IMG/VR virus record: IMGVR_UViG_2711768013_000005
DNA from: a virus
Taxonomy: Duplodnaviria > Heunggongvirae > Uroviricota > Caudoviricetes
Direction: 5' to 3' (one strand)
DNA length: 4,968 nt
A model generated the notes under the pieces. That model did no database searches and was not told the DNA's origin. It saw only the letters and a program-made list of their open reading frames with translations. The position numbers and the translations under genes were made by a program. Numbering within the stretch: the first letter of the stretch is position 1; each line of letters begins with the position of its first letter. Of this stretch, positions 85 to 4,894 are shown piece by piece.

Positions 85-1241
85 TTAACTGATCGGCATT
101 ACACCACCGGGACGCGGATTCATATCTTCCAGGTCGCGGCAGTCATTGGAAGAGTAAATTCCCCAGTTGATCCCGGTGGCGTAGGCTTCAAAACGGGACT
201 TCATATCCCCGCGCAGTAACGCCCCGGCGTTAAATTTGGCGTAATAAACGCCCTGCTTACTTTTTCGTACCAGTCCGGTGTTGATCCGCTGTTCGATGCG
301 GGTCAGATACGGCACCAGTGAATAGTTGATAAATCCCAGCCCCAGCTCTTCGATATTGTTGAAGGTGGCGCGATCGGTGTTCTGCACCATGTGCAACGGC
401 ACCCGGAACAGACGACAGATTTCTTCCAGCTGAAACTTGCGGGTTTCCAGGAACTGACTGTCCTCGGCGTTCAGCGCCATCGACTTCCAGTCCAGCCCCA
501 TTTCCAGAATCATCGGGCGGTGAGCATTGCCAAGCCCCGTGTGACACTCCTCAAAATCTTTCTTCAGACGCTCGTAAGCATCCGGCGTGAGCTTTTGTTC
601 CGTACGCAACACACCGGATGTCACCGCACCATTACTAAACAACCTGGCACCGTGCTCCTCGGTTGCCGCTGCCAGTGAAATGGCCTCACGCGCATACGCA
701 ATGGGATTCAGCCCGACAAGTCCATCCAGCGTCAGGGTGCGCACATGCCAGATTTCATTCTGGGTCAACACATCCACGGAACCATCCGGAAACGTCACCT
801 GATAAACCGGCTGCCACTGGCTGTTCAGCTTCGGTTCCACACAGCCCGGATCTATCGGAAGAAGCTCCACCACTTCTCCCAGTGCCTTTACCTTGTAGGC
901 GTAAAAATTCCCCCGTAGACACAGGCAGACAATAACCAGCTCCCAGAATTCCTGCGGTGTCATGTAGCCATTAGGTTTTGCCGAAACCAACTTATGCAGT
1001 CGTTCATCCACCGCCCGTGTTTTCAGGGTACCGCTGATTTTGTAGAGACTGCAGGGCAGCATACCAACAGACTCTGCCAGCACCCTGACGCAAGAATAGA
1101 CCGCCGTCAGGCGCATGGCCCGCTGGCTACTGATCCGCTTTCCGGTATAGGTGTCGTATGACAGCCCGATAGCATCAGCAGTTCTGCTGGCGTGGTCACC
1201 GGCACATCGCTTTTTCGTTGAAATAATCCCGAAAAGAACAC
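85..1241 (-). CDS. Phage portal protein, HK97 family; 5' end appears frameshifted (alternative boundaries: in-frame ATG at 1114-1116, or the long ORF to 1332)
   Basis: Minus-strand ORF open from 1332 to TAA at 85-87 (415 codons). Translation carries the portal-like segment AMRLTAVYSCVRVLAESVGMLPCSLYKISG near the N-terminus and has the expected size and position (immediately downstream of terminase large subunit). In this frame there is no ATG/GTG/TTG between the TTG at 1330-1332 (no RBS, overlaps the upstream small ORF) and the ATG at 1114-1116. A GTG at 1239-1241, preceded by GGAGGT with a 5-nt spacer and overlapping the upstream stop (TAGTG), opens a different frame that runs 44 codons to TGA at 1107-1109. 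Family assignment is from memory of HK97-type portals. Confidence 0.85.
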
Positions 1242-1423
1242 TATTTACCTCCGCCGACAGACTGCCGTGTACGGTCGAGATATCGCGCCACCAGCCACGA
1301 CCAGAACAGGCACAGCGCCCCGGCAACAACAAAACCCGCCGGGGGATAAATCAGCCAGGCACCATACGCCAGCAAAAGCGCACCCAGCACGCCCACCAGA
1401 GGCGCGAGAATCAGCATGATCAT
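1241..1423 (-). CDS. Small hypothetical membrane protein (60 aa, two predicted transmembrane helices) between terminase large subunit and portal
   Basis: [63 protein letters not shown]: two hydrophobic stretches followed by a basic tail. ATG at 1421-1423 is preceded by GAGGT at 6-nt spacing, 11 nt after the TerL stop (TAA, 1435-1437). Its stop TAG (1241-1243) overlaps the GTG of the putative portal start. Function unknown; the call rests on RBS, coupling and hydrophobicity only. Confidence 0.55.
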
Positions 1424-1434
1424 AATTACCTCAG

Positions 1435-3168
1435 TTAAAGCGAGCGGATCCCGTAGGACTCAATGTGGTCAGACAGCGTGTCTTCTTTCTCGTACAGCAT
1501 GGCTCTGCCAACCGCCATAATCAGCGCAACTGCACCATCGATTTTGTTTTCCGCCTGCTCTTTGACGGGTTTCACCACATCATCGTTACCCGGCATGTTT
1601 TTGCCGACCACGTTGCCGATACACCAGGTCATGATGGGATTGCCGTCATGATGAAAACGTCCCGATTCAATCGCTGCTTCCAGCTCTTTCATCGGATCGG
1701 ACATATTGGTGAAGTTCTGGACGATAGTGACGGGATTCAGGTCTTCATCAGCAAGGTCATGTGACAACCCGGTCGCCCCGAAGGGGTCGATGGGTGACTC
1801 ACTGACCGGGCTGATTTTGTTCGCCGCTTTGGCCTCCTCGAGGATGTAGCGATAATCCACCTCCGCACCATCGGTAACGGTCAGAACGCCCATTTCCACC
1901 CATTTCTGAAAGCGTTCGGCTGTCCGTCGATCTTCATTTTTCTCGACGCTGTACACCGTGTCATACGGTACCCAGAAACGCGGGGCCACACTGTAGTAAT
2001 GCGTTTTACCGTCAATCTCGCGGGTATAAAGTCGCGCCATGCTGTTCATATCCAGCTTACGCGCCAGGTCAAAGGCCAGAATGCACGGCTGCCCCTCGAA
2101 CTGCTCAAGGGTCAGTGATTTATCCTCGCAGCTCTGCCAGCTCACCAAGTTGAAATACGCCGAACGCGCCGACACCCAGATATTGAGGTGTTTTGTTTTA
2201 AAGACGTTTGCCAGACGGGCGTTATTTTTCGCACGCTGCTGCTGACTTAACAAAAATTCGCGATAAACCGACACGCCAATATTTGGATTGGCTTTTTCCA
2301 GCACCTGCGGGCCGGTCCAGTCGTCACCTTCATCAACGGTATAGATGATCCCGAACAGTTCATCGTTAGGCACCGAGCCGTTGAGCATCTCGATGACTTC
2401 CCGCCGCTTGTCGTAGCACGGCCCCTCAATGTTGTACCCGGCGGTGGTGATGGCCCACATCAGTGGCTGACGTCGCGCCCCCATCCCGGTAAGCATTGTG
2501 GTATAAAGCGCATCGGTGGCATGCTCGTGATATTCATCAACCACGGCACAGTGGGGTGATGAACCATCACCTGGGTTGCCGATCAGCGGTTCAAACCGCG
2601 CGCCATCCTCCGGACGGTTCATGTTTGAGGCGTTAACCTCAATCCCGAACGCTTCCGTCAGCATGGGTGTGCGTTTACACATCAGTCGCGCCGGGCGAAA
2701 GACTTCCCACGCCTGTTTCTCTGTCGTGGCACCGGAATACACTTCCGCGCCAAACTCGTTATCACAGGCAAAACAATACAGGGCAACACCGGCAGAGATT
2801 GCTGATTTGCCGTTCTTACGGGGGATTTCGGTGTACACCTCCCGGAAGCGGCGCAACCGGGTGCCTTTATTGACCCAGCCAAACGCACAGCAGATCACAA
2901 ATAGCTGCCACGGCTCCAGCGTGATGGGCATCCGTTTGAATGCCCACTCCCCCTTGGTGTGCGGCAACAGCTGAATAAATTTCGCGGCCCGTTCAGCCAG
3001 GTCCTTGTCGAAGCGGTAACGAAACGACTTACTTTTTTCCGCCATCAGGTCATCAAGATGGCGCTGGCAGGCCTGAATCACAAACTGGCAGGCAACAATC
3101 TTTCCGCGCACGACATCCCGGGCATACTGATTTGCAGCATTTACGTTGGGGTAAGATTTCCGGCTCAT
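1435..3168 (-). CDS. Phage terminase large subunit (Terminase_1-type, the partner of P27-family small subunits)
   Basis: 577-codon minus-strand ORF with ATG at 3166-3168 and TAA at 1435-1437. Contains an ATPase P-loop-like motif ([14 protein letters not shown]), an acidic DEYHEH segment consistent with Walker B, and C-terminal nuclease-domain length. The ATG overlaps the TerS stop (ATGA at 3165-3168), indicating translational coupling. Family recognition from memory. Confidence 0.95.
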
Positions 3169-3659
3169 GATTCGATAATTTTCAGAAACGGGTTAGTGGC
3201 TTTCTTCTGCCCCGCCAGGCCAATCAGACGCTGGCGGCTGCTGGGGTCGAGTCCGAGCATTGCCCCCGTGCTGCTCATCTCGGACTCCTGTTCTTTTTTG
3301 GCGGTCAGCTCCGGATTTTTGACCCTGCCGCCCATTGCACCGGTGATGGTGTTGCCCTGTATGGCAATATTTTTCACGGCACGTCGCCAGAACTCATAGG
3401 CCACGCACCACCGCTCAAGTACCGCCAGGTCAGTCACGCACAGCAGGCCCTGACCGCAGAGTTCTTTGGTTGTCAGTTGCCACATGATCGTGGCGAGAGG
3501 GAGATCTTCTTCAGCGAACCACTCTGGTGGCTCAACACCTTTGATGGGCGTAAAAACAGGTTCATCTTTGTTCAGGGCTCGCTTGCCGGGGTTTCCGGCC
3601 AGCGCCTTGCGCGCCGTTGGCTTGGGGCGACGCCCGGAACGCCCCGCCGTTCCAGCCAT
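3165..3659 (-). CDS. Phage terminase small subunit, P27 family
   Basis: Translation from ATG at 3657-3659 begins [34 protein letters not shown], the characteristic N-terminal signature of P27-family TerS (GRP.KPT..K.L.GNPGKR.LN..EP). AGGAG lies 9 nt upstream of this ATG. The ORF track starts 3 codons earlier at a GTG (3666-3668) that sits only 1 nt from the SD, so the ATG is preferred. Stop TGA at 3165-3167. Confidence 0.88.
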
Positions 3660-3706
3660 ATGCGGCACTCCTGGTTAAATTTCATTTTTCGCGGGTATAA
3701 AAAAAC

Positions 3707-3760
3707 GATGGGGCGGGCAGTCCGGAAGACGTCAGGTCACAGGGATTTGCCCCGCCCCTC
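3707..3760. other. GC-rich interrupted inverted repeat in the HNH-terS intergenic region; candidate cos / terminase recognition site (alternatively an attenuator-like hairpin)
   Basis: Seen in sequence: GGGGCGGG (3710-3717) and its reverse complement CCCGCCCC (3751-3758) separated by 33 nt, extendable by GCA/TGC with one bulge. On the minus strand the 3' arm is followed by ATCG plus T7. The position, between a terminase-associated HNH endonuclease and terS, is where cos sites lie in HK97-like cos phages (established knowledge). The functional assignment is inference. Confidence 0.3.
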
Positions 3761-3780
3761 CCTACAAGTGAGAATAATTA

Positions 3781-4131
3781 TCACCGGATTCGTTCGCGCG
3801 CTGTTTTCGCTTTATGGCAGGGCCAGCACAGACTCTGCAGGTTGCTGTCTGCGTCTGTTCCGCCATGCGCTTTCGGGATGATGTGGTCGACGGTTTTCGC
3901 CTCGCTCACCACACCGACACGCAGACACAACTGACACAGACCTTTATCGCGCTTCAGAATACGGGCACGAATCACCGTCCATTTTGAGCCATAGCCACGC
4001 TGGTGGCGGCTCAGTCCGCGCTGGTGCTGCACCCAGCCTTCACCGCGATGTTTATCGCAGTAACCCGAACTGTCTGTGGTTGTACCTGCACATCCACGCT
4101 TACGGCAGGCACGTGGGATTAGTGATGGCAT
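3781..4131 (-). CDS. HNH endonuclease (terminase-associated, HK97 gp74-like role)
   Basis: 116-aa ORF with ATG at 4129-4131 (GAGGT 5 nt upstream) and TGA at 3781-3783. Contains the HNH core VDHIIPKAHGGTDADSNLQSLCWPCHKAKT flanked by Cys pairs (CQLC ... CWPC), plus an N-terminal Cys/His cluster (C..C ... C..H). Located immediately upstream of terS, as is typical. Confidence 0.9.
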   Translation of the reverse strand: MPSLIPRACRKRGCAGTTTDSSGYCDKHRGEGWVQHQRGLSRHQRGYGSKWTVIRARILKRDKGLCQLCLRVGVVSEAKTVDHIIPKAHGGTDADSNLQSLCWPCHKAKTARERIR

Positions 4132-4173
4132 AAATACCTCATACCCTGCGAAATGTTTACCACGATAAAAAGG

Positions 4174-4418
4174 CTACTTAATGCACTGAGTGCGGATATA
4201 CTCCTGTGCCCCTTCCAGTTGCATCTGCATCGTCATCAGCCGCTCTCTGAGGGTGAAATAATCCCGTTCAGCGGTGTCTGCCAGTCGGGGGCTGGTTGCA
4301 TTATCCACGCCGGAGGCGGTGGTGGCTTCACGCACTGACTGACAGACTGCTTTGATGTGCAACCGACGACGACCAGCGGCAACATCAGCGCGCAGAGTTT
4401 CATTTTCAGCTTTCGCAT
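4174..4418 (-). CDS. Rz: Rz-like i-spanin, C-terminal fragment (5' portion lost in the N run)
   Basis: Translation after the gap, AKAENETLRADVAAGRRRLHIKAVCQSVREATTASGVDNATSPRLADTAERDYFTLRERLMTMQMQLEGAQEYIRTQCIK, closely matches my recollection of the lambda Rz C-terminus (..DVAAGRRRLHIKAVCQSVREATTASGVDNAASPRLADTAERDYFTLRERL..). Stop TAG at 4174-4176. The N-terminal residues shown in the ORF track before the X run (MNNVAIIT..) are out-of-frame junk. Confidence 0.85.
4236..4418 (-). CDS. Rz1: Rz1-like o-spanin outer-membrane lipoprotein, embedded in the +1 frame of Rz
   Basis: ATG at 4416-4418 lies immediately next to the first N. Translation MRKLKMKLCALMLPLVVVGCTSKQSVSQCVKPPPPPAWIMQPAPDWQTPLNGIISPSESG (60 aa) has the lipobox LVVVGC and proline-rich core, nearly identical to lambda Rz1 as I recall it. 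Stop at 4236-4238. Its RBS lies inside the N run. Confidence 0.9.
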   Translation of the reverse strand: MRKLKMKLCALMLPLVVVGCTSKQSVSQCVKPPPPPAWIMQPAPDWQTPLNGIISPSESG

Positions 4419-4589
4419 NNNNNNNNNNNNNNNNNNNNNNNNNNNNNNNNNNNNNNNNNNNNNNNNNNNNNNNNNNNNNNNNNNNNNNNNNNNNNNNNNN
4501 NNNNNNNNNNNNNNNNNNNNNNNNNNNNNNNNNNNNNNNNNNNNNNNNNNNNNNNNNNNNNNNNNNNNNNNNNNNNNNNNNNNNNNNNN
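4419..4589. other. Run of 171 N (assembly gap or masked sequence)
   Basis: Directly visible. It interrupts the lysis cassette between the SAR-endolysin N-terminus and the Rz1 start. ORF-track entries containing X runs are artefacts of translating N. Confidence 1.
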
Positions 4590-4679
4590 ACCACCTGGGC
4601 CAGTGATTAACACAGATGCTATAGCAACAGCCCCACCACCAATAGCAGCTGCAACAGCCTTGCGTAATGATGGCGACAT
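4590..4679 (-). CDS. SAR endolysin (phage 21 R-type lysozyme), N-terminal fragment truncated by the N run
   Basis: ATG at 4677-4679 with GAGGTG 5 nt upstream, overlapping the holin stop (TAATG). Translation [30 protein letters not shown] matches my recollection of the signal-anchor-release (SAR) N-terminus of the phage 21 endolysin ([30 protein letters not shown]..). The remaining ~135 aa are not present in the window. Confidence 0.75.
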
Positions 4680-4894
4680 TATTCACCTCTCGCAGCCTTA
4701 CGCTTGTCTTCTCTTATTTTGAAATACAGATTTGTCAGATAAGTCAGAAGCCCCAGAAGCAGACTTCCCAGCACACCAATCGCAGCCCACTGTGATGGAC
4801 TGACCTGATCCAACCACTGCAAAAACCAGTAGCCGGCACTGCCGGCGGAGGTGCCGTAGGCAATGCCTGTTGATATTTTTTCCATCTGATACAT
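4679..4894 (-). CDS. Class II holin, S21-type pinholin, with dual-start motif
   Basis: 71-aa [77 protein letters not shown] at 4892-4894 and a second in-frame ATG at codon 4 (4883-4885), two transmembrane segments and a charged C-terminus. Nearly identical to the phage 21 / DLP12-type S holin as recalled. G-rich SD-like sequence (GGGGGGCGGG) just upstream. Stop TAA at 4679-4681. Confidence 0.92.

Follow-up and report, generated by a model that had tools for sequence, protein, structure and literature searches.

A probable cos site of the SfI/phiP27 type in the gap between the HNH endonuclease and small terminase genes of a lambdoid prophage

Cos sites of related phages and the gene setting of the window

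For phage SfI, the termini of virion DNA have been sequenced, and the run-off reads lacked the 10 nt 5'-TGCCCGCCCC-3' when compared to the prophage, from which cos packaging was concluded (PMC3636060). According to the SfIV paper, the cos of SfI, SfII, SfIV and SfV, all of them serotype-converting phages of Shigella flexneri, is identical (PMC3851460). For phiP27, an Stx2e phage, record AJ298298 contains a misc_feature 'cos-site' at 21806-21815, placed on the homologous 10-mer CGCCCGCCCC, which differs from TGCCCGCCCC in one base. Coliphage HK97 has ends with 10-nt 3' overhangs, and its HNH protein gp74 stimulates cos cleavage (PMC9410871). The HK97 TerS has a 15-bp site at +15 to +29, with a critical C:G pair beside an A-tract, and has been proposed to stall the motor and thereby place the cut site in the TerL nuclease (PMC11331095). 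The cos site treated below is therefore already known, being mapped in SfI and annotated in phiP27, and its assignment here leaves the understanding of such sites unchanged.

The window, which is the whole stretch of 4,968 nt that was analysed and to which all coordinates refer, contains a late-gene block with all genes on the minus strand, in the order holin, lysis genes, HNH, gap, terS, terL and portal:

4679-4894, minus strand: holin gene
between holin and HNH, minus strand: lysis genes, partly N-masked (N at 4419-4589)
3781-4131, minus strand: HNH endonuclease gene (Pfam PF01844 HNH, E=1.6e-16)
3165-3659, minus strand: small terminase gene terS, P27 family (Pfam PF05119 Terminase_4, E=3.9e-20)
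1435-3168, minus strand: large terminase gene terL, HK97 type (Pfam PF03354 and PF20441)
85-1332, minus strand: portal gene

None of the terS, terL, portal and HNH ORFs is truncated. The terS start, an ATG at 3659 with AGGAG just ahead of it, is separated from the HNH stop (3781) by a gap of 121 nt (3660-3780), so that the ORFs and Pfam domains give the arrangement of an HK97/P27-type cos: a non-coding HNH-terS gap, followed by terL and portal. The same 495-nt terS ORF is annotated in SfV and SfI. TerL is homologous to HK97 gp2, as in this type of cos (26% identity over about 520 aa, E=8e-31 in BLASTP, with the same Pfam domains). At the DNA level the HNH gene is 93.7% identical to L34 of phiP27, and its protein has weak similarity to the HNH protein of HK97 (HK97p62, E=7e-6). 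Its product serves HK97-type terminases as their accessory nuclease, and the gene is the final one ahead of the right genome end.

Two minor features of the window concern its ORF content. A run of 171 N at 4419-4589, in the lysis-gene region, gives rise to ORFs with long X stretches. Between terL and portal, a 60-aa hydrophobic ORF (1241-1423, minus strand), for which a Pfam search returned no match, overlaps the listed upstream portal start.

The cohesive end and its flanks

The first-pass annotation had proposed a cos site in the HNH-terS gap from two arms separated by a 33-nt spacer, GGGGCGGG at 3710-3717 and CCCGCCCC at 3751-3758, and from a T7 run on the minus strand. Both are present as described, the arms being complementary at 8 of 8 positions and the T7 run corresponding to a plus-strand A7 at 3699-3705. 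The proposed location is also borne out, since the left arm plus two bases is the mapped cohesive end of SfI:

3710-3719, minus strand: cohesive end (cosN equivalent), 5'-TGCCCGCCCC-3', containing the left arm at 3710-3717

This 10-mer, identical to the 10-nt SfI cohesive end, occurs once in the window. When the window was compared to phage records by megablast, several of these records were found to start or stop within the HNH-terS gap. Specifically, the first base of the SfI record (JX509734) is homologous to window position 3709 and its last ten bases are TGCCCGCCCC; against the joined SfI ends, only three positions of the window differ between 3660 and 3762, where the upstream box (see below) ends. 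The interval thus holds a cohesive end that was mapped on the virion DNA of a close relative, as expected of an HK97/P27-type cos. Because the left arm is the cohesive end itself, the cos reading is supported, and on sequence grounds the 121-nt interval is very probably (about 0.9) the cos site of a lambdoid prophage of the SfV/SfI/phiP27 type with an HK97-type terminase.

Cleavage would nick the minus strand after 3710 and the plus strand after 3719, and this stagger would leave 10-nt 3' overhangs, a polarity that we infer from HK97 and from the SfI run-off reads without the 10 nt. The SfV (U82619.2, locus L002) and SfIV records start 7 nt upstream of the overhang defined in SfI, at TCCGGACTGCCCGCCCC; position 1 of the SfV record is equivalent to window position 3726, that is, TCCGGAC followed by TGCCCGCCCC. 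For this reason the exact nick positions rest on SfI, on the phiP27 annotation and on the HK97 register.

Relatives were gathered in two sets, (i) 80 viral contigs with TerS about 99% identical, which represent micro-variation only and not diversity, and (ii) 19 genomic loci with TerS 74-99% identical, found by a genome scan with a four-sequence TerS alignment in Shigella, Edwardsiella, Atlantibacter, Kluyvera, Enterobacter, Serratia, Citrobacter, Scandinavium, Lonsdalea, Acerihabitans, Morganella and Providencia. To the genomic loci phiP27 and Klebsiella phage Kp4882-1 were added, and 22 relatives (TerS 48-99% identical, at least 13 genera) were extracted by their terS start coordinate. The cos regions of the relatives align gap-free, the 19 loci, which range from Shigella to Providencia and Morganella, retain the architecture, and individual elements are conserved across genera far more than chance would give.

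The SfI, SfV, SfII and SfIV cos shares with the window the TGCCCGCCCC end, near-identical flanks and the order HNH-cos-terS, and TerS and its DNA are 97-98.5% identical between SfI/SfV and the window. The HNH gene and the sequence past the G-box are different in SfI/SfV, however, and here the window carries the phiP27 allele. The phiP27 cos, in turn, lies at the same position and has the G-box CAAATCCCTG, the 24-nt spacing and the ACCCGCGAAA block in common with the window, but not the spacer sequence, and its TerS is only 48% identical. The alignment to HK97- and P27-like cos regions that had been suggested as a check places the 10-mer of the phiP27 cos-site as a homologue and the HK97 right terminus in register. 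At the left genome end, on the terS side of the cut, lies a further block:

3678-3705, minus strand: predicted TerS site (cosB equivalent), consisting of T7 (3699-3705), AT and ACCCGCGAAAAATGAAATT (3678-3696)

The block extends from +5 to +32 relative to the cut, with about four variable bases between the 10-nt end and the T-run, and is followed by a Shine-Dalgarno sequence and then the ATG. In the form T(5-7)-AT-ACCCGCGAAAAATGAAATT it is found in 22 of the 22 relatives examined, as is ACCCGCGAAA (22/22), and its CCCGCG core, at +15 to +20, lies between the T7 and A5 tracts. The numbering of the HK97 study (PMC11331095) agrees with the HK97 GenBank record (T16, C:G at 21, A:T at 24-29), and hence the boundary of that record is the top-strand cut. 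Since its position matches that of the mapped HK97 site, 3678-3705 is predicted to be the recognition site of TerS, and the T7 run fits better as a DNA-shape element of this site than as a terminator tail.

On the other side of the cut, towards the HNH gene, the right arm is embedded in a longer conserved element, separated from the cohesive end by a spacer:

3740-3762, minus strand: conserved upstream box, GGGAGGGGCGGGG (3750-3762) and then CAAATCCCTG (3740-3749)
3720-3739, minus strand: spacer between box and cohesive end, variable in sequence and constant in length
3767-3783: imperfect palindrome (minus-strand GTGATAATTATTCTCAC), overlapping the HNH stop codon

The box, within which the right arm (3751-3758) sits, consists of a G-run followed by (T)CAAATC[C/T]CT, and the distance from the end of CAAATC to the cohesive end is exactly 24 nt in every sequence aligned. 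In 20 diverse sequences the CAAATCYCT motif never varies at AATC or CT, and the adjoining spacer is variable, apart from its final bases G[G/T]AC (3720-3723), which are conserved. The box is thus under selection, because it is conserved and the neighbouring spacer is not. The right end of HK97 has the same layout, namely GGGGGGGGG-A-TCAAATC (with G9), 24 nt of which the last three are GAC, and CGCCGCCAAA, which are the last ten bases of the record; box layout and 24-nt distance recur in the HK97-TerS clade, in about 60 different contigs. As a side observation, the G-run upstream of TCAAATC comprises 7-11 G in the viral contigs of the HK97-TerS clade (L113-L188), about 35 nt before the cohesive end. 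This variation in length is seen among otherwise near-identical cos regions and may be real polymorphism or homopolymer sequencing error.

HK97 and the window therefore have several elements in common: (i) the G-run with TCAAATC, 24 nt ending in GAC and a 10-nt end starting with YGCC, (ii) an HNH gene upstream, terS downstream and a homologous TerL, and (iii) immediately within the left end, an A/T tract adjoining a C/G core. Both flanks expected from HK97, that is, the G-run plus CAAATC at 24 nt and the left-end A/T tract plus C/G core, are accordingly found in the window. HK97 and the window differ in the sequence of the left end, in the overhang (CGCCGCCAAA in HK97), in the HK97 site having no inverted repeat, in the distance of the HNH gene from the end (about 320 bp in HK97 versus about 60 bp in the window) and in TerS, which is unrelated in sequence, HK97 gp1 being without a Pfam match. 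The left-end DNA of the P27-type and HK97 clades differs in step with TerS. The box is common to phages with a P27-family TerS and those with HK97 gp1, in which TerS is unrelated and TerL and HNH are homologous, and this pattern suggests that the reader of the box is TerL, HNH or the motor. We tentatively put forward, from the sequence comparisons, that the box may be a distinct and so far undescribed cos sub-site for TerL, HNH or the portal-motor complex. In the HK97 cos literature that was found, only the downstream TerS site is mapped and no upstream element is described. Possible roles, by analogy, would be a cosQ-like termination signal or an element that positions the second nick. This box, at a fixed distance from the cut and common to P27-type and HK97-type phages, is the only part of the present description that is possibly new. 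The wider interest lies in the comparative picture, in which the right-end box and the cut site follow TerL/HNH and the left-end block differs along with TerS, and from which testable predictions arise as to the protein that reads each part of an HK97-type cos.

The palindrome at the HNH stop has the form TGA[G/T]AAT-N-ATT[C/A]TCA and is also present in phiP27, L006, L048, L096 (where it is perfect, TGATAATCATTATCA) and L103, as well as in L187 of the HK97-TerS clade (TGAGAATTATTCTCA); it did not turn up in 13 of 20 scanned loci, among them L013, L022, L092, L097 and L101. Where it recurs, in some P27-type and some HK97-TerS-clade loci, it is located about 5-10 nt upstream of the G-box. The L096 version presumably resembles a Fur box.

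Taken as a model, packaging would begin with TerS binding to the conserved A/T-tract and ACCCGCG block inside the left end (3678-3705), and the bound TerS would position TerL and HNH for two nicks 10 nt apart, with 3' overhangs. DNA would then enter the capsid from 3709 towards lower coordinates, in the direction of terS, terL and the portal gene. At the next cos, where packaging would stop, the motor would arrive from the HNH side and cross the G-run/CAAATC box 24 nt ahead of the cut. A tripartite logic like that of lambda, with an upstream element met last, a nick site and a downstream TerS region by terS, is plausible by analogy.

In lambda, the cohesive end is a 12-nt 5' overhang with partial two-fold symmetry, cut by the Nu1/gpA terminase and with no HNH protein. 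The window shares with the lambda cos (cosQ-cosN-cosB) a G/C-rich cohesive end. Unlike in lambda, its 10-mer is asymmetric and its TerS belongs to the P27 family; with a PF05119 TerS and a TGCCCGCCCC end without internal symmetry, the site falls outside the lambda type. It is lambda-like in outline only, and not a member of that type.

The inverted repeat and rival readings

The inverted repeat that drew attention to the interval is real, but it is not above chance, because 8.4% of 2000 dinucleotide-preserving shuffles of the 121-nt interval contain one that is perfect over 8 bp or more. The fold energy of the interval is similarly unremarkable (z = -1.0 as RNA, -1.4 as DNA). In the alignment of 20 diverse sequences, pairing across the in-register 8-bp helix holds in 80.6% of cells, a level that 402 of 500 partner shuffles reach as well. 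The two central pairs are non-standard in 11 sequences and in 9, respectively, and covariation of the arms scores lower than the shuffled mean; RNAalifold gives -4.5 kcal/mol with zero compensatory pairs. The arms also change separately: the G-box is altered to GGGGGAGG with cosN unaltered in L021, L094 and L108, and cosN is altered with the G-box unaltered in L041 (TGCCCGCCTC), L096 (CGCCGCCTCA), L107 (CGCCGCCTTA) and L106 (CGCCGCTTCA). The residual pairing is compositional, with a G-run opposite a pyrimidine-rich run, and the inverted repeat is a by-product of one arm lying in the G/C-rich cohesive end and the other in the G-run of the upstream box. The first-pass view of a GC-rich palindromic element acting as a unit does not hold in this respect, the palindrome being incidental, with independently varying arms and the shuffle expectation given above.

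Three other explanations can be weighed against the cos reading or against its details. If one dimeric DNA-binding protein or nuclease used the two arms as symmetric half-sites, the palindrome itself would be the recognition element of cos; the perfect 8-bp repeat would fit this, and it is also found, with the 33-nt spacing, in phiP27 and most SfV-like contigs. However, the arms change independently, with G-box or cosN altered alone, those of 20 diverse loci that have a changed G-box or cosN keep only 4-7 bp of complementarity, which is out of register in nearly all of these loci, and HK97 has a plain G9 run opposite CGCCGCCAAA. A symmetric binding site was therefore rejected, on the independent variation of the arms and the 8.4% shuffle expectation, and is very unlikely. 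Equally slight is the chance that the minus-strand late transcript forms an inverted-repeat hairpin which, with U7 behind it, would serve for intrinsic termination or attenuation between the lysis/HNH and terminase genes, the alternative that the first-pass annotation had itself offered as a large-loop attenuator. The minimum-free-energy fold of this transcript, which had been named as a check, does pair GGGGCGGG with CCCGCCCC, and U7 begins 4 nt later, but the energy is ordinary (z = -1.0; 35 of 200 shuffles fold equally well) and the loop is 33 nt. A terminator scan of 3100-4300 was empty and an Rfam search returned no match. In the relatives the central pairs are lost as described, shuffled partners pair equally often (402/500), RNAalifold (-4.5 kcal/mol) finds no compensatory pair and the T-run is kept even where the stem is absent. 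The scan, the fold z, the relatives and Rfam thus all leave the attenuator without support, and with no scan site, a 33-nt loop, a 4-nt gap before U7 and a stem that is lost, the element is not an intrinsic terminator; the hairpin was rejected on the negative scan, the z of -1.0 and -1.4, the lack of covariation and the lack of an Rfam family. A hairpin and a cos site are in any case compatible, and not mutually exclusive.

The third explanation concerns function rather than identity, namely that the prophage is defective or packages by headful and that the site is a relic which no longer serves as a terminus. Only 5 kb of the prophage is in view, and its region has some match in 5043 of 5426 E. 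coli genomes, many of which are likely degraded. Against this, all cos elements are intact, SfI, a functional phage, has exactly the 10-nt end found at 3710-3719, the four ORFs (terS, terL, portal and HNH) have their full length and TerL is of the HK97 cos type; a relic is improbable, if somewhat less so than the two readings above.

Mosaicism and distribution

The window is a mosaic in which the junction lies inside cos (3740-3790, compared to SfI, L005, and phiP27, L001). More specifically, the part from terS across the spacer to the G-box is like SfI/SfV (97-98.5%), and the part from the G-box to HNH is like phiP27 (93.7%) and unlike SfI/SfV. Crossover between the lysis/HNH and the packaging module may take place at the conserved cos elements.

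At least 80% of the packaging module is present in 857 of 5426 complete E. coli genomes. The assignment gives single-base positions for the ends of the virion genome in a prophage type that is very common in E. coli and Shigella, and these can be used in (i) the annotation of prophage ends, (ii) the spotting of satellites or plasmids that carry cos and (iii) analyses of read termini. The best full-length E. coli matches to window positions 102-4397 (H39-H46) are only 92-93% identical, and span about 5.1-5.4 kb per 4.3 kb of query, with an iss/bor lipoprotein gene among their features. This suggests that, compared to the window, these matches carry an insertion close to the lysis/HNH region.
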